Of a stretch of DNA of 64,000 nt, positions 16,405 through 30,571 are shown in pieces (position 1 is the stretch's first letter; every line of letters begins with the position of its first letter). The DNA comes from Candidatus Eiseniibacteriota bacterium (GTDB taxonomy: Bacteria > Eisenbacteria > RBG-16-71-46). The translations under genes were made by a program, and so were the position numbers. Below the pieces are notes generated by a model. The model saw nothing but the letters and a program-made list of their open reading frames with translations, was not told the origin of the DNA and ran no database searches. The stretch covers positions 32,001 to 96,000 of the forward strand of contig JBGAML010000009.1 of assembly GCA_044223005.1 (NCBI GenBank), written 5' to 3'.

Positions 16405-16911
16405 ATGAACTTCCGACGCGTCGTCCTCGCCAGTCTCGTCGTTCTCGCACTCCCGCTCGCCGCCCGCGCCGCCGCGCCCGCCGCACCCGCGCCCGCGACC
16501 AGCGCCGCACCGGCGCAGCTCAAGAGCGTGACGCTGCACATCTTCAACCGCGTCTTCCCGGACTTCCACGACAAGGTCGAGGCCGTGCCGAACAAGGAGT
16601 TCCGCGTCGGCGACAGCGAGTACACCGCCAAGATCGTGCGCTTCGTGCCGGACTTCGACATGGACATCAAGGCGCACAAGGTCGTGAGCCGCTCCGGTGA
16701 GCCGCGCAACCCGGCCTTCCGCATCGCGGTCAAGAAGAACGGCGCGTCGATCGACACGAGCTGGGCGTTCTTCAACCTGCCGCCGCACTTCGGACCCCGC
16801 AACGTGCTCGCGTTCGTGGCGACCAACATCACGTTCACCAACCGGCCCGCCATGGCGAGCAAGGATTCGCTGGCGATCAAGATCCAGCAGCACGAGGGAG
16901 CGACGCATTGA
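16405..16911 (+). CDS. Exported protein, DUF2155-like (168 aa)
   Basis: Signal peptide and Ala/Pro linker; FVPDF...SRSGEPRNPAFRIAV...SWAF motif. Confidence 0.55.
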   Translation: MNFRRVVLASLVVLALPLAARAAAPAAPAPATSAAPAQLKSVTLHIFNRVFPDFHDKVEAVPNKEFRVGDSEYTAKIVRFVPDFDMDIKAHKVVSRSGEPRNPAFRIAVKKNGASIDTSWAFFNLPPHFGPRNVLAFVATNITFTNRPAMASKDSLAIKIQQHEGATH

Positions 16912-19900
16912 ACGCACGCTGGTGGTTCCCCCGCGCGTTCGCGGCCCTGGCCGCGACGCTGTTCGTCCTCGGCGTGGTGGTGTCCTCGGGCGCCGCGGGC
17001 CGCTCGAACGGGCCGGCGCGCGAGTGCTACGACTGCCACCAGAAATCCAAGGCCGAGTTCGGCAAGAAGAAGTTCATCCACGCGCCGATCAAGAAGGCCG
17101 ACTGCGCGAGCTGCCATGCGAGCCACGGCTTCTCGCAGAAGCTGGTGCTCGCGAAGCCGTCCGAGGAGCTGTGCATCGGCTGCCACGCGGACGTGATCAA
17201 GGCCACGACGGCGCCGCACCAGCACCCGGCGTTCAAGCGCGGTGACTGTCTCGCGTGCCACGATCCGCACGCGACCGACCGCCCGCACCTCGTGCGCGAC
17301 GACACGCCGCAGAACTGCTTCAACTGCCACACGTCGGCCAAGGCCGAGGCGGCCACCGCGCACGTGCACGAACCGTTCGCGAAGGGCGATTGCACGGCCT
17401 GCCACGCCTCGCATGCGGGCACGACGGCGGCGCTGCTCAAGCGGACCGACGACGGCCTGTGCACGGGCTGCCACGCCCTGGCGCAGATGGACGCCAAGCA
17501 CACGGGCAAGGGCCGCGGCGGCCTGCAGTGCCTCGATTGCCATTCGCCGCACGGCAGCGCGAAGGCCGGCCTGCTCCGCGCCGCGTCGCACCAGCCGGTC
17601 GCCGAGGGCAGCTGCGATGCCTGCCACGTGATGGAGGGCGGCAAGCCGACGGCCAAGCTGCAGGCGAGCAAGACCGAACTCTGCCAGACGTGCCACGAGG
17701 ACATGGCCAAGCTGTCGGCGCGCAAGCATCCGCACCAGCCGGCGGCCGAGGGCGAGTGCCTCGAGTGCCACGATCCGCACCGCAGCACGGCGGCGGGCTC
17801 GCTGCTCAAGGCGTCACCGAGCGAGCTCTGCATCGGCTGCCACGAGGACCTGAAGGCCGAACTCAAGAAGCCGGTCGTCCACAAGGCGTTCTCCGAAGGT
17901 CACTGCGCCGCCTGCCACGATCCGCACGGCTCGGACCAGGACCACATGATGAAGACGCCGGACGGCTCGGTGTGCCTCAAGTGCCACAAGGACGTCGAGC
18001 ACGACATCGCCGACGCCAAGGGCGCGCACCCGCCGGCCCTGCGCAAGGACTGCCTGCGCTGCCACGTCGCGCACTCGGGCACCGAGCACGCGCTGCTGCG
18101 GCAGCCGGAGAAGGTGCTGTGCGAGACCTGCCACGCGGCGACGGCCAAGAAGCTGGACGGCAAGACCAAGCACGCGCCGTTCGCGTCGGGTGACTGCGGC
18201 AACTGCCACTCGCCGCACGGTTCGCCGCAGCCGCACCTGGTGAAGGCGAACGACGGCGCGCTGTGCCTGGGCTGCCATGGCGACATGCAGCGCGAGTTCG
18301 CGCGCGAACACGTGCACCCGGGCCCGAAGGAAGGCCGCTGCCTGAGCTGCCACGCGCCGCACGGCGGCGAGGGCAAGGGCATGCTGGCGCGTCCGCCGGC
18401 CGAGCTCTGCGGCGGCTGCCACGCGCCGATCGCCAAGCGCATCGCCTCGACGGGAGCGCACTCGGCCGCGAAGCAGGGCAAGTGCGAAGCGTGCCACGAG
18501 CCGCACGGCTCGAAGGCGAAGTCGCTGCTGCGCGGCACGACCAAGCAGCTCTGCGCGAGCTGCCATCCGGACGTCGGCCACGGCGACAAGGTGCACCAGC
18601 CGGTCGCGGACGGGGACTGCCTCACGTGCCACGACGCGCACGGCGGCCCGGCGGCTCCGGCGCTCGCCAAGGCGGTGCCGGCGCTGTGCACGGACTGCCA
18701 CGACGGGACGGCGTCGGACATGAAGTCGAAGCACCGCGGCAGCGACGTGTCGAACGCGAACTGCCTCGGCTGCCACTCCGCGCACGAATCGAAGTCGGCG
18801 GCGCTGCAGCCGGCGGTGGTGCATCCGGGATTCGCCGAGGGCAAGTGCGAGAAGTGCCATTCGGGCGCCTCGCCCTCCAAGGCGAACCTGCTCGCGCCGG
18901 GCGGCGCGCTGTGCGTGCGCTGCCACGACGTGTCCAAGGTGAAGACGGCGGGCGACCACATCCACGACCCGGTGAAGAAGCTGCAGTGCCTGACCTGCCA
19001 CGCGCCGCACGCGTCGGCCCAGCCGAAGCTGCTGGTGGCGAAGTCGGACCAGCTCTGCGCGTCCTGCCACAAGGAGACGTCGGGAGCGGGGCAGCGGAAG
19101 TTCCCGCACGCTCCGGTCGCGAACGGCGAGTGCAGCAAGTGCCACGAGCCGCATCGCGCGCCGGGCGGCGGCATCGCGCTGCTCAAGAAGCGTCCGGGCG
19201 AGATGTGCGGCGACTGCCACCAGGACCTGGCGAAGCGGATCGCGGCGGGCAACGCGCACGCGCCGGCGGCCCGTGGCCAGTGCCTGACCTGCCACGACAG
19301 CCACGGCTCTGACCTGCCGGGCATGACGCGCCGCCCGGGCAGCGCGCTCTGCGCGGCGTGCCACAAGCTCGACGATCCGAAGCTGACGGCGAAGCATCCG
19401 GGGATGTCGATGGCGACGGTCAACTGCATCAGCTGCCACGACCCGCACGCGCAGGACAAGACGAGCAAGGCGCTGCTCCGGCCGGCGATCCACCTGCCGT
19501 TCTCGCGCGGCGAATGCGAGTCCTGCCACACGTCGAAGGGCAGCGCGAAGCTGCAGGCGACGGGGGCGGAGCTCTGCGTGACCTGCCACGAATCGGGTGG
19601 CTGGAAGGGCCGCAAGTACACGCACCAGCCAGTGACGAACGGCCCGCAGTGCCTGAACTGCCACGCGCCCCACGGTGGCGTGGCGCGCCCGATCCTGAAG
19701 GCGGCGGGTGACGAACTCTGCTTCGGCTGCCACGACCGCGCGATGGTCGAGGGCAAGGTGAAGCACAAGGCGCTCGAGAAGGGCTGCGTGAGCTGCCACG
19801 ACGCGCACGGCTCGGCGGATCCGGGAATGCTGAAGGCGGCCTCGGTCGACGATCTCTGCCGCAAGTGCCACACGGACCTCGCGAAGCACTACCACAAGAC

Positions 19901-20057
19901 GTCGAGCGAACGCCTGGACCCGTCGGGCAAGCCGCTCCGCTGCACGAGCTGTCACAACCCGCACTCGGCGCCGTTCGACGCGCTCCTCAACCACGACGCG
20001 AAACGCGACCTCTGCGTCCAATGCCACGACCCGGCCCAGATGCCCGGCGGCAAGTGA
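16908..20057 (+). CDS. Giant multiheme cytochrome c with 42 CxxCH motifs (1049 aa)
   Basis: TTGA overlap with GAGGGAG RBS; signal peptide; hand count of 42 CxxCH in HxP...CxxCHxPH...LL...LCxxCH doubled units. Confidence 0.95.
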   Translation: MNARWWFPRAFAALAATLFVLGVVVSSGAAGRSNGPARECYDCHQKSKAEFGKKKFIHAPIKKADCASCHASHGFSQKLVLAKPSEELCIGCHADVIKATTAPHQHPAFKRGDCLACHDPHATDRPHLVRDDTPQNCFNCHTSAKAEAATAHVHEPFAKGDCTACHASHAGTTAALLKRTDDGLCTGCHALAQMDAKHTGKGRGGLQCLDCHSPHGSAKAGLLRAASHQPVAEGSCDACHVMEGGKPTAKLQASKTELCQTCHEDMAKLSARKHPHQPAAEGECLECHDPHRSTAAGSLLKASPSELCIGCHEDLKAELKKPVVHKAFSEGHCAACHDPHGSDQDHMMKTPDGSVCLKCHKDVEHDIADAKGAHPPALRKDCLRCHVAHSGTEHALLRQPEKVLCETCHAATAKKLDGKTKHAPFASGDCGNCHSPHGSPQPHLVKANDGALCLGCHGDMQREFAREHVHPGPKEGRCLSCHAPHGGEGKGMLARPPAELCGGCHAPIAKRIASTGAHSAAKQGKCEACHEPHGSKAKSLLRGTTKQLCASCHPDVGHGDKVHQPVADGDCLTCHDAHGGPAAPALAKAVPALCTDCHDGTASDMKSKHRGSDVSNANCLGCHSAHESKSAALQPAVVHPGFAEGKCEKCHSGASPSKANLLAPGGALCVRCHDVSKVKTAGDHIHDPVKKLQCLTCHAPHASAQPKLLVAKSDQLCASCHKETSGAGQRKFPHAPVANGECSKCHEPHRAPGGGIALLKKRPGEMCGDCHQDLAKRIAAGNAHAPAARGQCLTCHDSHGSDLPGMTRRPGSALCAACHKLDDPKLTAKHPGMSMATVNCISCHDPHAQDKTSKALLRPAIHLPFSRGECESCHTSKGSAKLQATGAELCVTCHESGGWKGRKYTHQPVTNGPQCLNCHAPHGGVARPILKAAGDELCFGCHDRAMVEGKVKHKALEKGCVSCHDAHGSADPGMLKAASVDDLCRKCHTDLAKHYHKTSSERLDPSGKPLRCTSCHNPHSAPFDALLNHDAKRDLCVQCHDPAQMPGGK

Positions 20058-20087
20058 CCGCGACGCACTGACGTCCCGCAACGCACG

Positions 20088-20119
20088 ACGGCCACCGTTC
20101 CCCGGAACGGTGGCCGTTT
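20088..20119 (+). terminator. Terminator ending the cytochrome cluster
   Basis: acggccaccgttc-cccg-gaacggtggccgt followed by tt. Confidence 0.7.
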
Positions 20120-20136
20120 CGCGGCTCGGGAGGCTC

Positions 20137-20185
20137 ACTGCTCGAGAACGTGACGTCGCTCTACTGCTCGAGAGCGTGACGTCGC
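20137..20185. repeat. Tandem 23-bp direct repeat (2 copies)
   Basis: actgctcgagaacgtgacgtcgc (20137-20159) and actgctcgagagcgtgacgtcgc (20163-20185), 1 mismatch. Confidence 0.8.
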
Positions 20186-20364
20186 ACCGCCCCCCCCGGT
20201 CCGAGGCGGCCGGGGGACCGCTGAAGGGACCGCTCCTCGTCCGGCATCCTGCCGGACTCGTCACTAGGCGTCCGCATGCGACCGCCATCCCTGGCTCCTT
20301 CGCATGCTCCCGACTTCCCTTCATCGGCCCCCCGGCCGCCTCGGACCTGCCGCCCCACCACTTC
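20180..20364 (-). repeat. Structured element copy A (150-nt core 20198-20347); candidate ncRNA or MITE
   Basis: Reverse complement of copy B with 16 differences in the 150-nt core; self-complementary ends and two internal hairpins. Strand inferred from G-U wobbles. Confidence 0.8.
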
Positions 20365-20510
20365 ACTGCGCATTGGCTGCAGGCTCTGGCGCGCGCGTCA
20401 TCGCAGCGATCGGGGCTCACCAGTGCGCATGCCGACCGCATCGTCGCACCTGTCGCGCGCTGTACCTCGGCGCATCAGCGAAGCGGCGGTGCTTGCCTGC
20501 AGCCGATTCC

Positions 20511-20696
20511 GAAGTGGGGGTGGGGACGCAGGTCCGAGGTGCCCGGGGGTCCGATGGAGGGAAGTCGGGAGCGAGCGAAGGAGCCAGGGATGGCGGTCGC
20601 TCGCGTACGCCTAGTGACGAGCACGGCAGGATGCCGTGCGAGGAGCGGTCCCTCCAGCGGACCCCCGGGCGCCTCGGACCGGGGGGCGGTGCGACG
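20511..20696 (+). repeat. Structured element copy B (150-nt core 20531-20680); candidate ncRNA or MITE
   Basis: Inverted copy of A; hairpins gcca-ggga-tggc and gcacggca-gga-tgccgtgc inside a long outer stem. Confidence 0.8.
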
Positions 20697-20766
20697 CCGC
20701 GCTCTCGGGTGGTTCTGAATCGAGGTGCGCCCTCAGCGAGAACATCAGCCCATGACCGCAAACGCA

Positions 20767-20796
20767 ACGGGCCGCCTCGGTTGCGAGGCGGCCCGT
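20767..20796 (-). terminator. Terminator ending the cohesin/dockerin operon
   Basis: acgggccgcctcg-gttg-cgaggcggcccgt; TGCGTTT follows on the minus strand. Confidence 0.65.
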
Positions 20797-20818
20797 CGAG
20801 GGTGTGCAGGAAGCTGCG

Positions 20819-22888
20819 TCAGGGCATGTAGGTCAGTTTCTGCGTTGCGATGCGGCCCTGGTGCTCGAGGCGGGTGAAGTAGAGGCCTGCCGGGACGAGG
20901 TGGCCCGTGTCGTCGCGGCCGTTCCAGGTGGACTCGTGCGGGCCCGGGGCGAACGGGCCGTCGGCCAGGGTGCGGATGCGGCGGCCGTCGAGGCCGAAGA
21001 TCGCCAGCTGCACGCGGCCGCCCTGCGTCCCGATCGAGAACGGGATCCGGATGCCGTCACCGCGGGCCGGGTTCGGTTCGCTCGTGCGCAGTGCGAACTC
21101 CGCCGTCGTCCCGACCGGAGGCGCGTCCGCGCTCGACAACACGTGAACCGTTCCGTTCACGATCTGCGGAATCGGCGAGCCCTCGTTGAAGACCAGCCGT
21201 GCGAGCGACACCGTGATGTTCGTGCCCGACGGCGCCGACGGCGAGATCACCAGGTTCACCGAGCCCAGCAGCGTGCTCGTGTTCGGCAGCGTCGCCACGC
21301 CGCCCGCGGCGCAGTCCAGTTCCGTGAGGCCGTTGTCGAAGTGCGACTGGATGTTGCCCAGGCCCCACGAACTCCAGAGGCCCGAGGGCGACGCGACGCC
21401 GTTCGTGATGTTCGCGCCCGTCCAGTCGATCGCGAACTGCATCGAGTAGATGTTGAGCGAACCCACCGTGCGATCCGACGTGATCGGCAGGATCACCGTC
21501 GAGCCCGGAGGCGCGTTCACGGAGCCCAGCGTCACCTTGAGATCGTAGATCGTCAGGTTGTTCGTGTAGTCGACCGAGCCGTTCGCGTCCTGCACCCGCA
21601 CGCGCGTCACGCCGCCCTTCACCGCCGTGAGCAGGCCGGTGGGGGAGATCGTGGCCAACGTCGGATCCTCGACCGACCACGTGAGCGGAGCCGTTGCGCC
21701 GCTCACCGTGTATTGCTGCGTCTGGCCCGCGAGCAGCGTCACGTTGTCGGGGGACGCGAAGATCGTCGGGAGCGCACCGACGGAGAAGAAGCCGTTGGTC
21801 GCCTTGGCCGGCATCGTCTCGTTGAAGACCGGGTTGACGAACGTCAGGCTCGAAGACCCGGCACTCGTGGGCGATGCCTGCAGGTTCAGGTAGCACAGGA
21901 TGCCCGAACCCGAGAGGTCCGTGCTGCCGGTGAAATCCACCGAGCAGCCATTCGACGTGGCCGCGGCAAAGATCGGGCCCCAGCCGTTGAGCAGCGTGCC
22001 CGGCGGCGCCGTCACGCTGACGAAGCTCGCGACGTTCGTGCCCCACGTGAGGCTGAACTGGCCGCTGCGGATGCCGAGTCCGGTGAGCGACGTCACGGTG
22101 ATCGGGATCGCGAGCGGCTGGCCCACGAGCACGTTGACCGTCGTCGAGGTGATGCCCATGCCACGGATCAGCACCGTGCCCGTCGTGGTGCTGGCGTGAA
22201 GCGCGGCATCGGTGGCCGTGACCGTCACCGCGCCCGGCGCGACGCCCGTGAGCAGGCCCGAACTCGAGATGGTGGCGATCGCCGGGTTCGACGTGCTCCA
22301 CGTGACCGGATTGGTGACGCTGCCGCTGACGTTGAACTGCAGCGTCTGGCCGCGGATCACCTCGCCGAGGTCGGGGTAGACGTCGATCTGGGGCGTCACG
22401 TTGATCGTGATCGAGCCCGTCGTGGTGGTCACCGTCGGCGAGCCCTCGTTGAACTTGAAGTTCGAGAGCGTGAGCGACGTGCTGCCGCCGTTCAGCAGGG
22501 CCGGGTTGAGCAGGAAGCTGACCCGCACCATCGAGCCCGCGCCCGTCAGCGGCGTGGTGCCGGCGTCGCTCACCGTCACCTTACCCGTGTTGCTGACGGA
22601 GGAGACGAAGAACTGCGGGGTCTGCCAGCCGGCGGTGCCGGCGAGCGTGCCCGTGTTGATCACGTCGACGGCGGTCACCTGTGAGCTGTTGTAGCTGAGG
22701 TCGAACTGCAGGGACAGGATGCCCTGTCCGGTCACGTCCGCGGTGTTGATGTCGATGTTGACCGTCTGCCCGGCCAGCCCGTTTCCGGTGCCGACCGAGA
22801 CCGCGACGGCTCGGGCCGTGCCGGTGCCGGCGGCCGTGGCCGCCAGCACCAGCAGGAACCCCAGCGCCCAGGCGCGAAGTCGGAGCAT
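20819..22888 (-). CDS. Scaffoldin-like secreted protein: cohesin-Big2-cohesin-Big2-cohesin-FlgD/T9SS-like CTD (689 aa)
   Basis: GAGGAGGA RBS; signal peptide; three modules with G+xSxQF...FNE(G/T)xP; two xTWS...xATISxxGLLTxV Ig group-2 repeats; DGRRIR...WNGRDDTG...AGLYF tail. Confidence 0.8.
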   Translation of the reverse strand: MLRLRAWALGFLLVLAATAAGTGTARAVAVSVGTGNGLAGQTVNIDINTADVTGQGILSLQFDLSYNSSQVTAVDVINTGTLAGTAGWQTPQFFVSSVSNTGKVTVSDAGTTPLTGAGSMVRVSFLLNPALLNGGSTSLTLSNFKFNEGSPTVTTTTGSITINVTPQIDVYPDLGEVIRGQTLQFNVSGSVTNPVTWSTSNPAIATISSSGLLTGVAPGAVTVTATDAALHASTTTGTVLIRGMGITSTTVNVLVGQPLAIPITVTSLTGLGIRSGQFSLTWGTNVASFVSVTAPPGTLLNGWGPIFAAATSNGCSVDFTGSTDLSGSGILCYLNLQASPTSAGSSSLTFVNPVFNETMPAKATNGFFSVGALPTIFASPDNVTLLAGQTQQYTVSGATAPLTWSVEDPTLATISPTGLLTAVKGGVTRVRVQDANGSVDYTNNLTIYDLKVTLGSVNAPPGSTVILPITSDRTVGSLNIYSMQFAIDWTGANITNGVASPSGLWSSWGLGNIQSHFDNGLTELDCAAGGVATLPNTSTLLGSVNLVISPSAPSGTNITVSLARLVFNEGSPIPQIVNGTVHVLSSADAPPVGTTAEFALRTSEPNPARGDGIRIPFSIGTQGGRVQLAIFGLDGRRIRTLADGPFAPGPHESTWNGRDDTGHLVPAGLYFTRLEHQGRIATQKLTYMP

Positions 22889-22913
22889 GGATTCGTCCTC
22901 CTCGTCGCGCCGG

Positions 22914-25900
22914 TCAGCGAACCACGATGAGCCGCTGGTGGAACGCCTGCGAACCGAGGCGCGCCTGGACGAAGTACATGCCCGCGCGGACCGGGCGGCC
23001 ATCGCCGTCCGTGAGGTCCCACCGCAGCGAGTGCTCGCCCGGCGTCATCGCGCCGTCCACGAGCGTGCGCAGCGTGCGGCCGGCCACGTCCAGAACGCGC
23101 ACCGACGCCCGCGGCGCATCCGCCATCGAGACGCCGAACGCCAGCGTGACGGGCTCGCGCGCCGGGTTCTGCGACGGCCGGCCGAGGAAGCTGACCTGCG
23201 GCGCCGCCGGCGGCGTCACCGACTCCTGCACGATCGTGTCATTGACGCGCGCGAACGCGAGGGTCGGCGCGCGGAACTCGCCGGCGCCGGCGGGGAAGCG
23301 CAGCACCACCACGTCGCCCGACCCGAGCGGGTCGGCCGACGCCATGGCCACGAAACCCTTGCCGTCGCGGACCGCGAACGCGTCGATCGCGTGGCTGGCG
23401 TCCGAGGGCGTGGCGCCCGAAAGCGTCGCCGCGTTGCCACCGGTCAGCGTGAGTTCGAGCGAGTAGGCCGGCACCGTGCCGCTCACCGCGACCGGCACGA
23501 GCCACTCGTCGCCCGAGCGCTGGGCCGCGCCCAGGGCGACCGTGAAGCGTCCCTGCGAGCGGCGCACGAACTCGCGCGCGGCGAGCACGTCCGCGTCCGC
23601 CTGGCGGGCGCCGTTGGAGAGCGCCGGGAACGCGCGGATCTTGTTCGCGACCAGCTGCAGGATCAGCGTGCCGTCGAACGCCGTGATGCCGCTCGTGGCA
23701 CTGACATCGGCGACCAGCTTCTGCAGCGGGTTGAACACGATGCTGCTGACCGTGTACTGCAGCAGGAGCGAGGCGTCGTACGCCATGACCTGGCCGTTCA
23801 GGCTGCAGTCCCCGAGCAGCGGGTTGATGAGGCCCGAGCTGGCGTAGGGCGCGTAGTCGACGTTGTTGCTCACGACGTCGCCCGAGCCGGCGTTGGTGGC
23901 CGAGCCACAGAGATCCGCCGTGGCCGAAGCGTCCGCCGGGCCGTTCGCGGCTCCCCACCAGCAGCCCTCGGCCGAGACGCAGAACGAGGCGCCGGTATTG
24001 TTGATGCCGTAGTAGTAGTTGCCGTAGAAGCTGGAGCCGCGCACCAGCGGATTGCTCGAGCCTTCCGCCGAGATGCCGACGTTGTTGTAGGCGAAGAGGC
24101 ACGAGTCCACGGTGGGAGCCGAGCTCACGCAGCGAAGAGCGCCCTGGGTGCTGGACGCGCTGCCGTAGCGGAAGACGCAGTTCTTGAAGTTGACCTGCGG
24201 ATCGATCGCCGTGCCCTCGACCGTCACGTAGTTCCAGTCGCCGGGCGCGGGCGAGGTGTAGGTCGAATCGTTGTTCGAATCGCCGCCGTAGAAGTCGTCG
24301 CGGTAGGACGTGAAGACGACCAGGCTCTCGGGAACCGTGCGGCCGATCGAGGTGAACGCGCGCTGGATGTCGATCGTGCCACTGTAGCCCTTGACGATCA
24401 CGCCCGGCTGCATTGTGAGCGTGGCTCCGAGGCCGACCGTGAGCAGGCCGTTCAGGAAGAACGGCATGTTCTGGCGTCCGGCCACCGGCCGGACCTTCCA
24501 CAGCACGTCCTGCGCGATGTTCTCCGTGATCACACCCAGCGCCGTATAGGCATTGCCCTGGAAGCGGCAGTTGTTGAAGACCGGGTCACTGACCAGCGAG
24601 AGGTAGACCGGCGTACCGGTGATGTTGGCCGTGGTGGAATCGAAGTCGACGCTGTTGAAGGTCGGTGTCGAGGCGCCCGCGATCGTGGCGCCCGTGACAT
24701 AGCTCCGGGTGATCTGGGTGTTCGAGATCGTCGGGCCGGCGCTCGAGAAATACAGCGCGCCGCCCGAGTTGCCTGCGTAACGGATGCGGCAGTAGTTCAT
24801 CAGGGTCGCGGCGTCATTGCTCACCGGCTCGAACTGGATGCCGTACCACTGTCCCGGGGCGGGCAGCGTGGCGGCGCCGTCCCCCATGACGTCCTGCCCG
24901 AAGGCGTCGTCGGCCAGGGACGTGAACATGATCAGGCTGTCGAGCTTCCCGTTCGCGTAGAGCGTTCCGAAGATGTCGATCCAGTTGCCGGTCGGGTCGG
25001 CGTAGAGCCGCCCGGACTTGATCACGACGCCGGGGTTGATCGTCCACTTGGCGCCGAACGCGATCGTGACGTTGCCGGCCAGGATGTAGTTCAGGTTCGA
25101 GAAGGGGCCGATCTTGCCCACGCCCAGCAGGACGTCCTGCGCGATCGTCTCGCCCAGGATGCCCAGGCCGAGGTAGGCGTTGTTCGCGAACGTCATGGTC
25201 TGGCCGTAGGTCGGGTGGCTGATCAACGACGTGACGATCGGCAGCTGCGTGCAGTTGAGGATGTTCAGCGAGTCGATCGACGGCGTCGAGTTGCCCGCGA
25301 TCGTGAACGCCGTGGCGTTCTGGAAGAACTCGAGATTCGCGCAGCGCGGGCCGGCGCTCTGGCAGCTGATGACGCCACTCGTGTTGCCGCCCGAGCCGCC
25401 GAACTGAAACTTCACGTTGCGGATCACGCACGAGGCGTCCACCGACGTGTCCTCGAACAGGAGGCGTCCCCAGTTGCCGGCGTTCGGCAGCGTGCTGCTC
25501 AGCGGGGTCGTGTCACCCGCGATCGCGTCGTCGTACATCGACGTCACGAAGATGCGGTTGGTTCCGTTGTCGCTGCCGACCATGTTCAGCGCGCCGAAGA
25601 CGTCGAACAGCGCGTACGAGCTGTTCGGCTTGATCACGACCTGGGGGGCGATCGAGAGCGTGACACCGCTCGCGACCGTGATGGTGCCGGTCGGGAGGTA
25701 CGCGAACGTGGGGCTCGCCGGATTGCCGACGTTGGGCCGGTACTTGAGCAGCGCGTTCTGCGACAGCGTCTCGCTGATCAGCGCCAGCGCGTTGTAGGTG
25801 TTGGTCGTGTAGGTGTTGTTGGTGGCGATCTGGGGGTCGGACAGCACGCTCATGACGATCGGCGCGGCGCCCAGGTTGTCGAACGTGTTCGCGCTGATCA

Positions 25901-27686
25901 CCGGGGCGCTGTTGCCGTCGCACCGGATGCCGTAATAACCCTTGAAGATGAACGAGTTCGTGATCGTCGGGCTGGCATTCGTGCACCAGATCGAGGTCGG
26001 GTAGCCGTCGTACGGGCTCTGGGATGCGTACGTGACGCGGCAGTAGTTGAGCTTGCTGGTGACGTCGTTGGACGAATCCGTGAAGTGGATCCAGTTCCAG
26101 TTGCCCTGTGCCGGCGTGGTCGTGGCGCCGTCGCCGTTGGTGTCGAGCGGGTTGCCGTACTGGTCGTCGCGCTCCGAGGTGAACACGATGTTGTTGAGGG
26201 CCGTGCCGTTGGCCACCAGCGCGCCGTCGATGATGAAGCCGCCGCCGCTGAGCTGGTGCTTGATCACGATGCCCGGATCGATCGTGAGCGTCGCGCCCGA
26301 GAGCATCTGGAGCGACCCGTTCATGAGGTAGTAGGTGATGTTGGCGAAGCCGCCCATCGTGCGCTGCTGCAGGTGCGAGTCGACCGCGATCGGCTCGCCC
26401 TCGAGCCCGATCGCCGTGATGGCGTTGGCGAGCAGGCCGATGTTGGTGAAGGTCGGATTGGCGGAGACCGACATCAGCACGGGGGTCGACGAGCAGTTGT
26501 TGATCTGGACGTTGGTGATGCTCGGATTGCAGACCCCGAGCAGGTTGATGCCGTGTCCGGCGTCGCTCAGCAGCGAGTTCGTGATGTCGATGCTGTTGTT
26601 CTGCTCCATCACGAGGCCCTGCGTGGTGGCGTTGGTCCCGAACTTGAGCCGGCAGTAGGAGAGCGATCCCGTCGCGCCCTGCTGGTAGTAGATGTATCCC
26701 CAGTCGCCGCGGTTGGGCGCGGTGATCGAGCCGTTGTTGTTGGTGTCCTTGGGCTGGCCGTAGTTGTCGTCGTGGATCGAGGTGATCGTGATGGAGTCAC
26801 CCGCCGCCGACGTGCCGTTCATGGTCAGCCCGCCCGCCACGGTGATGGCGGCGCCGGGGATGGGCTTGATGACGACGCCATGCTGCACCGTGAGCGATGC
26901 CGTCGCCGGGATCGTCAGGCTGCTGAGCAGCACGTACGTCACGTTGGTGATCGGGTTGGCGCCCACCGTCGCGCCGCGCTGGACGAGGCTCGAGGCGCCG
27001 GCCGGCAGCGTGCCGCCGCGCACGCCGATGGCGTCGTAGCCGTTGTCGGAGGACGAGAACGCGACGGACGAGAAGCTCGGGTTGGAGGTGAAGTCGATCA
27101 CGACCGGCGTCTGGGTCGAGGCCTGGATCGTGGTGTTGTTCAGGGTCGGCGCCGCCGTGCCCTGGCAGTCGATGCCGTAGTAGGACTTGCTGATCGTGCA
27201 GTTCGTGATCGGGTTGCCCACGCTCTGGAACGTGAGCGCACCGGTGTTGTTGTAACCGGCGTAGCGGAGGACGCAGTAGGTGAGCGCCGAAGCGCCGCTG
27301 ACCGAGCTCGACGGGAACAGGATGCCCCACCAGTCGCCCGTGTTGGGCACCGTGAGGTTGCCGTCGCCGTTGGTGTCGCCGGCGGGATTGTTGTCGTCCT
27401 TGATGGACGTGAAGTAGATCGGGTTGGCCAGGGTGCCCACCGCCTGCAGCGCGCCGATCGCGTTCAGCTGCGCCCCGGGGTTGAACTTGACGACCACGCC
27501 GGGCTGGACGGTGAGCGTGACGCCGGCGCTGATCGAGATCGTGTTCTTGACCCAGTAGGGCGATCCGGCGACCGTCCAGTTCGTGTTCGCCACGATGTTG
27601 GTGGTGACCGACGTCTGGGCGAACGACGCCGCGGCCGAAACGGCCAGGGTAGCGAGCACCAGCAACAGGAACCGGGCGAAGCGCAT
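22914..27686 (-). CDS. Large secreted parallel beta-helix repeat protein with dockerin-like duplex and FlgD/T9SS-like CTD (1590 aa)
   Basis: GGAGG RBS; signal peptide; six repeats with FTSxxDD...GDTNGDG...GDW; GDCSLNGQVMAYDASLLLQ...ADVSATSGITAFDGTLILQ; WDLTDGDGRPVRAGMYF tail. Confidence 0.85.
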   Translation of the reverse strand: MRFARFLLLVLATLAVSAAASFAQTSVTTNIVANTNWTVAGSPYWVKNTISISAGVTLTVQPGVVVKFNPGAQLNAIGALQAVGTLANPIYFTSIKDDNNPAGDTNGDGNLTVPNTGDWWGILFPSSSVSGASALTYCVLRYAGYNNTGALTFQSVGNPITNCTISKSYYGIDCQGTAAPTLNNTTIQASTQTPVVIDFTSNPSFSSVAFSSSDNGYDAIGVRGGTLPAGASSLVQRGATVGANPITNVTYVLLSSLTIPATASLTVQHGVVIKPIPGAAITVAGGLTMNGTSAAGDSITITSIHDDNYGQPKDTNNNGSITAPNRGDWGYIYYQQGATGSLSYCRLKFGTNATTQGLVMEQNNSIDITNSLLSDAGHGINLLGVCNPSITNVQINNCSSTPVLMSVSANPTFTNIGLLANAITAIGLEGEPIAVDSHLQQRTMGGFANITYYLMNGSLQMLSGATLTIDPGIVIKHQLSGGGFIIDGALVANGTALNNIVFTSERDDQYGNPLDTNGDGATTTPAQGNWNWIHFTDSSNDVTSKLNYCRVTYASQSPYDGYPTSIWCTNASPTITNSFIFKGYYGIRCDGNSAPVISANTFDNLGAAPIVMSVLSDPQIATNNTYTTNTYNALALISETLSQNALLKYRPNVGNPASPTFAYLPTGTITVASGVTLSIAPQVVIKPNSSYALFDVFGALNMVGSDNGTNRIFVTSMYDDAIAGDTTPLSSTLPNAGNWGRLLFEDTSVDASCVIRNVKFQFGGSGGNTSGVISCQSAGPRCANLEFFQNATAFTIAGNSTPSIDSLNILNCTQLPIVTSLISHPTYGQTMTFANNAYLGLGILGETIAQDVLLGVGKIGPFSNLNYILAGNVTIAFGAKWTINPGVVIKSGRLYADPTGNWIDIFGTLYANGKLDSLIMFTSLADDAFGQDVMGDGAATLPAPGQWYGIQFEPVSNDAATLMNYCRIRYAGNSGGALYFSSAGPTISNTQITRSYVTGATIAGASTPTFNSVDFDSTTANITGTPVYLSLVSDPVFNNCRFQGNAYTALGVITENIAQDVLWKVRPVAGRQNMPFFLNGLLTVGLGATLTMQPGVIVKGYSGTIDIQRAFTSIGRTVPESLVVFTSYRDDFYGGDSNNDSTYTSPAPGDWNYVTVEGTAIDPQVNFKNCVFRYGSASSTQGALRCVSSAPTVDSCLFAYNNVGISAEGSSNPLVRGSSFYGNYYYGINNTGASFCVSAEGCWWGAANGPADASATADLCGSATNAGSGDVVSNNVDYAPYASSGLINPLLGDCSLNGQVMAYDASLLLQYTVSSIVFNPLQKLVADVSATSGITAFDGTLILQLVANKIRAFPALSNGARQADADVLAAREFVRRSQGRFTVALGAAQRSGDEWLVPVAVSGTVPAYSLELTLTGGNAATLSGATPSDASHAIDAFAVRDGKGFVAMASADPLGSGDVVVLRFPAGAGEFRAPTLAFARVNDTIVQESVTPPAAPQVSFLGRPSQNPAREPVTLAFGVSMADAPRASVRVLDVAGRTLRTLVDGAMTPGEHSLRWDLTDGDGRPVRAGMYFVQARLGSQAFHQRLIVVR

Positions 27687-27935
27687 GGGGCCTCCGTTGG
27701 GAGTCGGCGGAAGTCACGATCCCGCGGGGTCGAGAGGCGTCCGGGCATGGGGGCCGGGGGAGCCTGGTGCCGCGCGGGGGCTGGAAGGACGGGGACGGGG
27801 AACGTCCTCAGGACGGTCCACAGAAGGATAACGTCACGAGTTGCCGAGTCGGCACATGCATTTTTCACGATGGCGCTGCAGCAATGGGACCGCCGGAAAG
27901 CGGCACTGAACCTCGGGCGGGCCCGCCGGCTCGGG

Positions 27936-30416
27936 TCAGCCCTCGCTGCGCCGGGCGACGAGCATCGTGATGTCGTCCGCCGGGCCGGTTTCGCCCTCGA
28001 ATGCGCGGACTTCCCGCACGACCCCGTTCGCGATCGCATCGCAGCTCTCGCCGCGCCGCCGGAGCAGCGCCTGGACCAGCCGGTCCTCGCCGAACTGTTC
28101 GGTCGCGGCGTCCGCGCCCTCGGTGACGCCGTCGGTGTAGAGCACCAGCAGGTCCCCGGGGGCGAGCGTGGCCTCGCCGCTCTCGAACCGCGACTCCGGC
28201 AGGATGCCCAGGATGAGGCCGCCGGTCGCCAGCCACTCGACCGTCCCGTCCGCCCGCACGAGCGCCGGCGGGTTGTGGCCGGCGTTCGCGTAGACGAAGC
28301 GGCCGGTGCGGCCGTCGAGGAAGCCGACGAACGCGGTGACGAACTTGCCCGGGTCGACGCTGCGGTGGAGGAACGCGTTCAGCCGCCCGGCCACCTCGTC
28401 GGGCTGCGAGCGGTCGACGTCCTGGCTCATCAGCGAGGCGCGGAACGCCGACATGAGCAGTGCGGCCGGGACGCCCTTGCCCGAGACGTCCGCGATCACG
28501 AGCAGCACGCGGCCGTCGCCGAGGGGGATGTGGTCGTAGTAGTCGCCGCCGACCTCACGCGCGGGTTCGCTGTGGCCCGCGACTTCGAGCCCCGGGACCT
28601 GCGGCGGCGCCGCGGGGAGCAGGCGCTGCTGGATGCGCCGCGCCAGGTCGAGCTCGCTCTCCAGCCGGTCCCGTTCCTTCTGCACCTCGCGCGCGCGTTC
28701 GAGACCTTCCGCCATGCGGTTGAACGCGCTGGCGGCGTCCCAGAGTTCGTCGTCGCCGTGGATCGGGATCCGGTACTCGAGCCGCTGCTCGCCCAGCGCG
28801 CGGGTGCCTTCGCGCAGCGCCGCCACCGGCTGCACGAAGCTGCGTCCGAGCTGGCGCACCATGGTCATGTTGAAGAGCAGCACCGGCAGCAGGAGCAGCA
28901 CGAGGCCCGCGAGGATCATGATCGGGATCAGGTTGTACGGGTTCTCGCTCACGTTGCGGTAGAGCCCGCTCACGATCGCCTTGAACGACACCTTCGCCGA
29001 AATCGCGAAGCTGCGTTCCGCCCACTCGCCGTCGCGGAAGCGCAGTCCGGCGACGTTCGCGCGAGCGGCGCCACCGAGCGAGTCCACGCGCACGTCGCCG
29101 TCGGAGTCCTCGGCGCCGACCAGCGTGTCCTGGCCGGTGCTGATCATGATCGCGCCGGTGCCCGGCCGGGAGTGGACCGCCGAATCCGGCACGCCGAACG
29201 TGCGCGCGACCGCGCGGGCACGTTGCAGGCCGAGCGAGTCCTCGCGCGCCAGGCGGGCGCGGTTCGCGATCACGCCGGCGTTCGACGGTCGGAGTTCGGC
29301 CATGACGAGGTGCGCGTCCGCGAGGTGGGAGGGGCCGCTCACCAGCGCTTCTCCGATCGGCACGAGCGCCACGGCTGCGACGCCGCGCGCCGAGTCGCGC
29401 GCGGCCGCGCCGAGCCAGCGCACGTCCTCGAGTTCGACGACGCCGTGGTCGGGGAGCGAGTCGAGGCCCGCGGCCCACGTCGCCAGATGGGACTCTCCGC
29501 CCGCGGGGTCGCCCGCGACGCGGTGCGCCGCTCCGCCCTCGATCCGCCAGAGGCGTGCGTGCGGCCACTCGCGGGCGTGGGAGGCGACGACCGCGCGCAG
29601 GGCCGCGTCGGGGTCGCCGGGCGTCGCGAGCGCCTGCGCGAGCGCGAGCCGCAGCCCGTCGGCTTCCGCGTTCACGGCGCGCTGCGCGAGCAGCGCCCGA
29701 TCGGAGCCGGCCCCGAGCCATGTGGTGAGCACCCACATGCCGACGGTGAGGACGAGCGGCACGCCGACGACCAGCAGGTGCGAGAGTGCGAGGCGGCGGC
29801 GCACCGTGCGGATGCCGAGGCTCGGATCCGTGACGAACGTCGCGAGCGCCTTGAAGAAGCCGGTCACCACGTAGGTGAGCGCGACCGCCGTCGTGAAGCG
29901 GCGGAAGTCCGCCAGCGCGAGCAGGGCACCCGTGTACTCCGGGGATTCGGCGCGGCCACCGAATCGCGCGAAGAACGCGGCGACCACCGCCAGCGCCCCC
30001 AGCGCCGAGGCGAACAGCGCGCGCGTGCCGAGCGCGGACCGCCAGCCGAACGACAGCGTCGCGAACACGGCGAACGTCGCGATCGCCGCCCACGGCGCGT
30101 GCATGGCCGCGAGCAGGACCGCGATCGCCGCGGACGCGATGCGGAGCCAGCGACCACGGCGCGGGACGCCGCACGTCGAGAGCCACACGACCGAGGTCCA
30201 GAGCGCCATGCCGGAGAGCGCGCGGACCACGAGGAGTGCGGTGGAGGCCGCGCCGGCCACGCCGCTCCCCTCGACGTCGCGCAGCAGGCCGGAGACCAGC
30301 AGGCCCACGCCGAGGACGAGAAGGGCCGCGCGTACCCGCGGTGGCCGCGCGGCCTGGGGAACCCTCGCCGCCCAGGTCGCGACGGCGAGCGAGATCAAGA
30401 AGAGGAGGGGACCCAT
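27936..30416 (-). CDS. Membrane sensor with HAMP domain and SpoIIE/PP2C (RsbU-like) phosphatase
   Basis: VGGDYYD, ADVSGKG, NAGHNP, YTDGVTE, DDITM motifs; HAMP DELWDAASAFNRM; multiple TMs. Start uncertain (30416 or 30476). Confidence 0.9.
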   Translation of the reverse strand: MGPLLFLISLAVATWAARVPQAARPPRVRAALLVLGVGLLVSGLLRDVEGSGVAGAASTALLVVRALSGMALWTSVVWLSTCGVPRRGRWLRIASAAIAVLLAAMHAPWAAIATFAVFATLSFGWRSALGTRALFASALGALAVVAAFFARFGGRAESPEYTGALLALADFRRFTTAVALTYVVTGFFKALATFVTDPSLGIRTVRRRLALSHLLVVGVPLVLTVGMWVLTTWLGAGSDRALLAQRAVNAEADGLRLALAQALATPGDPDAALRAVVASHAREWPHARLWRIEGGAAHRVAGDPAGGESHLATWAAGLDSLPDHGVVELEDVRWLGAAARDSARGVAAVALVPIGEALVSGPSHLADAHLVMAELRPSNAGVIANRARLAREDSLGLQRARAVARTFGVPDSAVHSRPGTGAIMISTGQDTLVGAEDSDGDVRVDSLGGAARANVAGLRFRDGEWAERSFAISAKVSFKAIVSGLYRNVSENPYNLIPIMILAGLVLLLLPVLLFNMTMVRQLGRSFVQPVAALREGTRALGEQRLEYRIPIHGDDELWDAASAFNRMAEGLERAREVQKERDRLESELDLARRIQQRLLPAAPPQVPGLEVAGHSEPAREVGGDYYDHIPLGDGRVLLVIADVSGKGVPAALLMSAFRASLMSQDVDRSQPDEVAGRLNAFLHRSVDPGKFVTAFVGFLDGRTGRFVYANAGHNPPALVRADGTVEWLATGGLILGILPESRFESGEATLAPGDLLVLYTDGVTEGADAATEQFGEDRLVQALLRRRGESCDAIANGVVREVRAFEGETGPADDITMLVARRSEG

Positions 30417-30571
30417 CGAGACCACTGTATCGGAGCCGCAACCCTTTGACCACCATCGCGCTCCGCGATTCGGCATGCCGCGTGCGCCTTTTCGGGCACC
30501 TGCGGGGGTGCAGCGGTGTAGGAACGGGTGGCTCCCCAGCCATCGCGAGTCCTGTCCGACAACGGAGGCCC

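Follow-up and report, generated by a model that had tools for sequence, protein, structure and literature searches.

Between a multihaem cytochrome gene (16908-20057, plus strand, with 20 paired-CXXCH stretches) and a cohesin/Big_2 gene (20819-23002, minus strand), the window, by which we mean the whole 64,000-nt stretch of Candidatus Eiseniibacteriota DNA that was analysed, contains two inverted copies of a 150-nt sequence, and the question raised by this locus is what kind of object such a doublet represents. An initial annotation had proposed a selected single-strand structure with hairpin loops of CsrA-binding type, belonging either to two back-to-back sRNA paralogues or to a MITE/REP-like family. 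Its observation of the inverted 150-base pair is confirmed here, and its interpretation as a whole is partly supported. The doublet is one of many dispersed, insertion-prone structured elements that are under selection on one strand, a result far beyond chance.

A repeat search delimits main inverted-repeat arms of 168 nt (20192-20359 and 20519-20686, 89% complementary) and outer arms of 27 nt (20169-20195 and 20681-20707, 93% complementary). The entire 555-nt stretch gives an 80% match to its own reverse complement, and each arm of the doublet is a hairpin in its own right, with 32-nt terminal arms. The features of the locus are collected in Table 1.

Table 1. Features of the doublet locus, in coordinates of the window. 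R1 is the covariance model described in the text.
Feature	Position	Strand	Remarks
Composite palindrome (doublet)	20169..20707	.	Both copies and spacer; wider palindromic stretch 20137-20707
Tandem 23-nt repeats of the copy A 3'-flank motif	20137..20185	-	Two repeats
Copy A, entire model match	20176..20362	-	R1 match G000:C18:52176-52362(-), 179.8 bits; fold
Copy A, make-up			G-rich 5' flank; basal stem of 30 bp with two hairpins; GGGGGGGGCGGTGCGACG as 3' flank
Copy A core, basal stem to basal stem	20198..20347		Functional strand minus
Copy A hairpin-1 loop	20286..20293	-	CAGGGAUG
Copy A hairpin-2 loop	20245..20251	-	CAGGAUG
Spacer between copies A and B	20363..20515	.	Unique in genome; degenerate palindrome centred near 20438
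Copy B, entire model match	20516..20700	+	R1 match G000:C18:52516-52700(+), 185.3 bits
Copy B core	20531..20680		Functional strand plus
Copy B hairpin-1 loop	20585..20592	+	CAGGGAUG
Copy B hairpin-2 loop	20627..20633	+	CAGGAUG
Context hairpin 3' of multihaem cytochrome gene	20086..20121	+	Outside element
Context hairpin 3' of cohesin/Big_2 gene	20768..20797	-	Outside element

Comparison of the two copies

Ungapped comparison of copy B's core with the reverse complement of copy A's gives exactly the 16 differences counted previously. Seven base pairs differ on both sides between the cores (core positions 12-139, 20-131, 27-124, 43-72, 44-71, 92-108 and 93-107). Six of them change from one Watson-Crick pair to another, which reproduces the earlier tally of twelve differences forming six compensatory pairs in the basal stem and both inner hairpins; the seventh, 20-131, passes from G-U to U-A. 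Together with the one-sided change at pair 10-141 (C-G to U-G), it makes up the three differences that had been described as tolerated by wobble on one strand, and the single remaining difference, at core position 76, is indeed unpaired.

The minimum-energy fold is identical in both copies, with two hairpins set on a basal stem of about 30 bp, and its energies are -114.2 and -116.7 kcal/mol on the G-rich strand and -103.3 and -106.8 kcal/mol on the opposite strand. The fold z-scores of the cores lie between -10.7 and -11.9, and none of 200 shuffles folds equally well. In each copy the more stable strand is the one bearing the loops (minus for A, plus for B), and both of the GGA-loop hairpins reported for that strand could be located in both copies.

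A dispersed family

Searched by similarity, the genome that holds the window (35 contigs, 4.52 Mb) shows additional copies on four other contigs, some of them in inverted pairs. The covariance model R1, built from seven copies, matches this genome 15 times, always on the loop-bearing strand, and two additional copies are truncated by contig ends, which indicates that the assembly breaks at the element. The copy-number check suggested by the initial annotation thus yields a multi-copy, insertion-prone family. GGGGCGG-type motifs flank both sides of the stem in one subfamily within this genome, and short tandem repeats often lie 3' of copies, as they do beyond copy A. No shared upstream motif was discernible by eye among the 15 own copies and 10 from Planctomycetota-titled records.

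R1 also matches in 15 of 40 relatives. Scanning public genomes for the loop pattern yielded 81 stretches, and R1 gave 21 matches among 80 of these loci, the named records among them being titled Candidatus Eisenbacteria, Planctomycetota or Pirellulales; one of the named loci proved identical to a locus in a same-genus genome. The Aeromonas and other proteobacterial matches to the loop pattern were considered as CsrB-type sRNAs and rejected, since none of 20 loci hit Csr/Rsm and the only hits were tRNAs. A refined model, R2, was built on 57 matches and applied to another 150 genomes from a sample of the phylum. It found the element in 52 of the 59 genomes of family f1, in two of three in f2 and in one of two in f8, and in none of 86 genomes from 14 other families of the sample. 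Copy numbers per genome reach at least 17, the best 17 candidates per genome having been scored. Searching 19800-21100 of the window against Rfam 15 gave no family match, only chance-level scores, so that the Rfam check suggested by the initial annotation places the element in no known family.

Selection on pairing, strand and loops

Among the seven closest copies, 27 of 63 pairs are already compensatory. Over 56 distinct copies drawn from numerous genomes, the paired fraction of cells is 91.8%, compared with 57.9% in shuffles and 32-40% in slid-partner controls, and 56 of 60 pairs have changed on both sides, a figure attained in 0 of 500 shuffles. Covariation extends to every one of the 30 basal-stem pairs, each position having several pair types; since the letters are free while the pairing is kept, selection must act on pairing and not on sequence.

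The kind of mismatch tolerated identifies the strand. In the basal stem G-U or U-G combinations occur 64 times and A-C or C-A combinations four times (86 versus 17 over all pairs), and this excess points to selection on a single strand, because an unselected duplex should show both equally. Although the alignment was made with a model of the G-rich strand, it is the loops that set each hit's orientation, and no shift of an ungapped 30-bp helix could convert A-C to G-U. What functions is accordingly one strand, that of the loop-bearing sense, and the selected single-strand structure envisaged in the initial annotation is borne out by the covariation and by the G-U excess. RNA is the natural reading of that strand; as G-T wobbles are tolerated in single-stranded DNA too, the strand test leaves room for a DNA intermediate.

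Conserved letters are concentrated in the two loops and in the junctions GGAGUCG, CGCCUAGYGAG and CGARCGUCC. The loops take the form CA(N)GGA(N)G, with GGA kept in 53 of 56 copies in hairpin 1 and in 54 of 56 in hairpin 2. Hairpin 1 mostly reads AGGGAU, with some AUGGAU or ACGGAA, and hairpin 2 reads AGGAU. Variants occur mostly at the letter before or after GGA, as in CAUGGAUG, CACGGAAG, CAGGGAAG and CAGGGACG. The CsrA/RsmE site consensus is CANGGANG, with free positions on either side of GGA, and, judged by sequence, the variation in the loops appears to fall mainly on the two N positions of this consensus. The CsrA-like character claimed for the GGA loops thus extends, as a resemblance, to nearly all of the 56 copies. 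Adjacent G-A and A-G pairs are seen in the hairpin stems of roughly a quarter to a third of copies. A pairing of the 3' GACG motif with the junction GUCG was considered and dropped, the motif being too short and too common in G+C-rich DNA.

CsrA and FliW

The presence of csrA, which the initial annotation had made a test of its proposal, was established: the window's genome has two homologues, scoring 91 and 76 bits. The first can be aligned from end to end with Escherichia coli CsrA, the VHREEIY segment included; the second is divergent and lies among unannotated genes. The resemblance of the loops to the consensus suggests that the element probably binds CsrA. Of four sequencing runs compared in contig form, two labelled as metatranscriptomic but flagged as probably DNA contain contigs that cover parts of both copies and not the cytochrome gene, a pattern that carries no weight as evidence of transcription.

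The genome also encodes three flagellins, and a FliW gene was not found in it. In a first sample the element was present in 14 of 24 f1 genomes and in none of ten from f3, and FliW in none of the 24 and in eight of the ten (f3 tallies include the unpublished genome G026; without it each f3 count shifts by one and the conclusions are the same). The complementary distribution of FliW and element that these numbers suggested was overturned in the wider sample. FliW is indeed missing from all 59 sampled f1 genomes and present in most other csrA-bearing families, but in family f10, where 30 of 32 genomes have csrA, both FliW and the element are absent from all 32, and at least six genomes carry the two together (G025, G029 and G048 within the phylum; G041, G042 and G045 from outside the phylum sample). 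csrA itself is widespread, occurring in 132 of 151 sampled genomes and in all four motif-bearing genomes examined outside the phylum sample. Given this breadth, the situation in f10 and the co-occurrence of FliW with the element, the distribution lends the CsrA reading no independent support.

Mobility and genomic placement

Copies of the element behave like mobile DNA. Four sites filled in relatives are empty in the window's genome, and the doublet site is empty in a congener, in which roughly 82 nt containing one hairpin separate the same two genes. At least two element sites are common to other congeners, and both position and copy number vary among species of one genus. The most readable event is at a site where two genes overlap by ATGA in the window's genome and in 12 of 15 congeners (one further contig ends early); in two others, G013 and G006, an insertion of 193 or 236 nt carrying the element is flanked by the direct repeat (G)ATGAGC, a duplication of 6-7 bp representing a single event. 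Neither the leader nor the trailer of the insertion in G013 was found at other copies. A second clear target duplication was not found at C5:194873 or at the ArgH-GNAT site, whose flanks are too diverged to read. At the latter site one of the genome's own copies lies in frame within the linker of an argininosuccinate-lyase/acetyltransferase fusion gene; 15 relatives matched this gene, and in all seven inspected the linker is shorter and lacks the loop motif. Another copy takes up all of the space that separates two convergent stop codons.

A first count had suggested placement in 3'-UTRs, a reading abandoned when the corrected count of orientations proved mixed, with no clear bias. With the element drawn left to right, the genes on its left and right have orientations + and - in eight cases, + and + in seven, - and - in six, and - and + in three. 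Eight singletons and three doublets lie between convergent genes. Among the matches listed, pairs closer than 1 kb are, by their loop-bearing strands, divergent in 17 cases, tandem in one and convergent in none, some of these pairs being orthologous. The model ends of close pairs are 16-424 nt apart, with one further pair at about 710 nt and another overlapping by 12 nt; in some doublets the separation is 16-56 nt, which would be tight for two promoters.

These properties raise the question of whether the element is simply a mobile and selfish repeat akin to a MITE, REPIN or RPE, whose fold and loops a mobilising enzyme would recognise in single-stranded DNA or RNA form and whose likeness to CsrA sites would be coincidental. 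Such a repeat would be expected to show the insertion polymorphism, the target duplication, the copy in frame within a gene, the breaking of contigs at copies, the REPIN-like inverted doublets and the mixed orientation to neighbouring genes. It would also have a use for the single-copy, syntenic Y1 transposase gene found in 55 of 59 f1 genomes, three of three in f2 and six of six in f3. Yet this gene, the one outcome of the suggested search for a cognate RAYT/IS200-like transposase (Y1_Tnp, C31:241-558), has neither the element nor any other repeat family in its visible flanks, one of which is the 240 nt before a contig end. Genome G048 lacks the Y1 gene yet carries at least 17 copies, whereas in f3 the gene is present in six of six genomes and copies in none of the six. 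Y1 transposition is not known to leave a target duplication, and the duplication at the one readable insertion would not be expected from Y1. Nor do the other features of a transposable unit fit well: the terminal stem keeps its pairing only, unlike the terminal inverted repeats of a MITE, no full-length parent with a transposase was seen between copies among the own-genome matches, and the inserted segment's leader and trailer are not common to other copies. Loop variation that lies mostly at the N positions of the CsrA consensus would be unexpected for binding by an unrelated protein. We regard a purely selfish repeat as unlikely, though it deserves to be kept in mind.

Transcription signals and the small RNA reading

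If copies A and B are transcribed outward, their promoters would have to sit in the spacer between them. Consensus scans of 19900-21000 recognised neither a sigma-70-like promoter nor an intrinsic terminator, using consensus sequences that may not be those of the host phylum. The doublet had been described as lying between two terminator hairpins; hairpins do exist on both sides (Table 1), but neither passes the terminator scan, because a T-run is missing 3' of both.

This bears on the idea of two ordinary sRNA genes, that is, sponge paralogues of Csr/Rsm type with their own spacer promoters and terminators, the remaining copies of the genome being further paralogues. The match of the loops to the CsrA consensus and the strand-specific selection are what such genes should show; the palindrome reaches into the spacer, as would be expected from joint duplication of promoter and gene, and some copies are antisense to both neighbours and would need a promoter of their own. 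The absence of FliW from all 59 f1 genomes, although the window's genome has flagellin genes, would suit sponges as well. Classical free-standing genes placed back to back nevertheless find no support in the consensus scans, in which promoter and terminator both went unrecognised, and there is no common upstream motif. Ordinary sRNA genes would hardly be expected to take up an entire gap between convergent stop codons, to lie inside an open reading frame or between genes that elsewhere overlap, or to differ in number and position among species of one genus. We judge this explanation improbable.

A structural 3'-end element, either a bidirectional terminator or an mRNA stabiliser like REP/BIME, in which the GC-rich stem does the work and the inner hairpins are incidental, would explain the many copies between convergent genes, the copy replacing an entire convergent spacer and the single hairpin held instead by the doublet site in a congener, but is very hard to reconcile with conservation that, across phyla, is strongest in the inner loops and junctions and leaves the stem free in sequence, with copies that lie inside a gene or separate co-directional or divergent genes, and with a doublet locus that already has its own hairpins after both genes.

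Preferred interpretation

We favour, with a probability of roughly 60%, a dispersed structured RNA element resembling TwoAYGGAY, about 150-190 nt long, insertion-competent and probably CsrA-binding. Each unit would act in single-stranded form, most likely as RNA from the G-rich strand, with the long basal stem of about 30 bp, free in sequence, carrying two hairpins joined by conserved junctions. Its loops, CA(N)GGA(N)G and CAGGAUG, lie about 40 nt apart, a consensus and a spacing that could allow one CsrA dimer to clamp both sites. Units may be transcribed alone or within host transcripts, and as very stable RNA modules would bind CsrA; at least 15-17 of them per genome could form a distributed CsrA decoy, or could place host transcripts under CsrA control. 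The family would multiply by insertion, and divergent doublets may arise by inverted duplication about the 5' side of the element.

A bolder version, in which the units are mobile CsrA-decoy modules, in effect an RNA gene with transposon-like spread, and serve as the main CsrA antagonists of the flagellated, FliW-less family f1, strikes us as doubtful. Were it true, mobile decoys would represent RNA-based control of CsrA independent of, and convergent with, the gammaproteobacterial Csr/Rsm sRNAs, and would supply a function for the TwoAYGGAY class. RNA antagonists of CsrA are described as established only in the Gammaproteobacteria (PMC4333381). In the passages covered of a published CsrA survey, which a literature search on Eisenbacteria and CsrA had pointed to, such an RNA is not described, and the papers listed by a search joining CsrA with REP or MITE make no mention of CsrA. 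The family is absent from Rfam and represents a TwoAYGGAY-like family in new phyla that are unrelated and uncultivated. Read as RNA, its 150-nt unit is compact, would have a defined three-way fold and is open to direct CsrA-binding tests.

Comparison with known systems

The element shares with the sponge RNAs CsrB and CsrC as well as RsmX, RsmY and RsmZ the presence of GGA in hairpin loops and of many sites per genome. Sponge loops follow the consensus CAGGA(U/C/A)G and CANGGANG, and the several loop GGA motifs characteristic of such RNAs are found here as two per unit. The setting is also similar, with csrA in the genome and FliW not found in family f1. The architecture differs: the sites are distributed as two per unit over many dispersed units, whereas Csr/Rsm sponges gather many sites within a single gene or a small number of genes. 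Also unlike these sponges, the element has a 30-bp enclosing stem and insertion polymorphism, including one copy inside a gene; it matches no Rfam family, and consensus scans recognised no promoter or terminator.

Classical MITEs can be set aside because the terminal sequence is not conserved, all 30 basal-stem pairs being variable, and because no transposase gene lies between copies; a target duplication, as left by MITEs, is clear in the one case of (G)ATGAGC in G013 and G006, the other sites being too diverged. Rickettsia palindromic, Correia and ERIC elements are structured repeats, 100-150 bp in length, with insertions between genes, and those of Rickettsia insert in frame inside genes as well. 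By these descriptions the present element is like them in its intergenic insertion and like the Rickettsia elements in its in-frame case; they retain their terminal sequences, however, and are not known to carry loops of CsrA type. The assignment to a MITE/REP-like family therefore holds as far as a multi-copy, insertion-prone repeat is meant and fails for a classical MITE or REP, the stem being variable in sequence and terminal inverted repeats lacking.

REP and REPIN elements with their RAYT transposases offer a further comparison (PMC3116915, PMC2817692). As there described, they too are dispersed extragenic palindromes occurring as inverted doublets, and the single-copy, vertically kept transposase gene has its counterpart in the Y1 gene of the element's order. 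REP units are, in those accounts, hairpins of 20-40 nt, whereas the present units are 150 nt long with a branched fold. The Y1 gene without flanking copies, its imperfect phyletic match and the one target duplication are likewise unlike REP/RAYT. Such a system was rejected since the Y1 flanks lack repeats, the units are not short hairpins, and f3 and G048 do not match.

The closest parallel is the TwoAYGGAY motif (RF01731), described in 2010 (Weinberg et al. 2010, PMC2864571) and without proven function since. A 2015 study proposed that it binds CsrA and pointed out tandem G-A pairs in a stem (Gardner and Eldai 2015, PMC4333381). According to a recent account it consists of two hairpins arising from a common basal stem, with flanking repeats, and has a median copy number of 11-23 and doublets that are 68.4% divergent and a median of 249 bp apart (bioRxiv 10.64898/2026.09.22.753630). 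The present element corresponds closely: folds and covariation give two successive hairpins on a common basal stem; copies are numerous, vary in number among relatives and form mostly divergent doublets tens to hundreds of bp apart; short flanking repeats occur, here as GGGGCGG motifs and short tandem repeats; and tandem G-A pairs, as reported for TwoAYGGAY, are present in hairpin stems. Aeromonas members of TwoAYGGAY even show CAGGGAUG loops, the same as in copies A and B, and with respect to the AYGGAY form itself, the AGGGAU that prevails in hairpin 1 of the element is also found in accepted Aeromonas members, hairpin 2 having AGGAU.

There are also differences. The linker between the hairpins is conserved and about 17 nt long, against 1-2 nt in TwoAYGGAY, the second loop (CAGGAUG) is one base shorter, and the junction sequences are not the same. 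The hosts are Eisenbacteria- and Planctomycetota-titled records in one case and Pseudomonadota and Bacillota in the other. With membership set at 43 bits or more, the RF01731 covariance model has no match in 19800-21100 of the window or in the whole genome at E values up to 10, while two Aeromonas loci used as positive controls score 55.9 and 54.1 bits. Conversely, R1 scores no more than 13.7 bits on two true Aeromonas TwoAYGGAY loci, in alignments that miss the hairpins. Since each model misses the other family, the element is not filed as a member of TwoAYGGAY. It is a close match in architecture and behaviour, and thus a counterpart of that class, for which the cross-model searches give no support for homology; together the two suggest that dispersed elements with twin GGA hairpins are perhaps a recurrent bacterial solution, or a recurrent parasite.

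Element copies in and between genes

In two congeners of the genome that holds the window (G000), namely G013 and G006, a copy of the element lies between two genes that share an ATGA overlap in each of 13 other genomes. A duplicated (G)ATGAGC brackets the insertion, and the G006 copy has, in addition, an extra 24-nt tandem repeat on its 3' side. In G000 itself, one copy occupies the linker of a gene encoding an argininosuccinate lyase-GNAT fusion, where it is in frame and stop-free. The fusion is present in all seven relatives inspected (7/7), with shorter linkers that lack the loop motif.

A short remnant adjoins the full copy on contig 21. Its 5' flank and 20 nt from the start of the stem run straight into sequence resembling the 3' flank, and it looks like the product of a deletion between two G-runs. 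At a site in G013 orthologous to another G000 copy (contig 5:194873), an N run accompanied by long C-runs suggests that the assembly is faulty there. The loop pattern used to scan public genomes also matches beside tRNA genes in several records titled Spirochaetes (L033, L041, L045), loci that gave no match to the covariance model of the element.

Coordinates of the features described
Feature	Location	Strand
Element insertion, G013	L174:2059-2265 (compared with G000 contig 31 near 9256)
Element insertion, G006	L175:2056-2293 (compared with G000 contig 31 near 9256)
Element copy in fusion-gene linker	G000 contig 20, 58998-59172 (L141:485-659)	+
Element remnant	G000 contig 21, 44939-44988
N run and C-runs	G013 contig 2, about 91700-91760 (L184)
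Y1 transposase gene	G000 contig 31, 241-558	-
Canonical csrA and the ORF after it	contig 21 (L112:1483-1999)
Divergent csrA	contig 8 (L113:1423-1662)
GGCAGGAUGCC/CACAGGAUC site	G000 contig 8, 715	-
GGCAGGAUGCC/CACAGGAUC site	G000 contig 8, 124467	-
GGCAGGAUGCC/CACAGGAUC site	G000 contig 15, 71894	+
GGCAGGAUGCC/CACAGGAUC site	G000 contig 14, upstream of 21231
GGCAGGAUGCC/CACAGGAUC site	G000 contig 14, upstream of 22355
2576-residue open reading frame	window 22719-30449	+
Repeats in cytochrome gene	window 19543-20031

The Y1 transposase gene

G000 carries a Y1 (IS200/RAYT-like) transposase gene whose orthologues are single-copy and syntenic in place. The syntenic gene was found in 55 of 59 genomes sampled from the family of G000 (f1) and in all those sampled from two further families of the phylum (f2, 3/3; f3, 6/6); of the 82 genomes sampled from the other families, only 11 have it. 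No repeat family was found in its visible flanks in G000.

Other features of the window

A long open reading frame yielded zero Pfam matches. The 3' part of the multihaem cytochrome gene beside the element doublet is built of repeats with a period of 144 nt and related periods, each ending in TGCCACGA (CXXCH haem sites).

csrA genes and candidate targets

Downstream of the canonical csrA comes an ORF with no Pfam match, although its C-terminal end resembles FlgM by eye. A second, divergent csrA is surrounded by unannotated, possibly phage-derived genes. At several places in G000 a single GGCAGGAUGCC hairpin or a CACAGGAUC motif precedes a start codon by 30-60 nt, and the ribosome-binding sites of these genes contain GGA. 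Two of these leaders belong to flagellin genes, both preceded by sigma-28-like promoter motifs, and the leaders as a group are possible CsrA targets.
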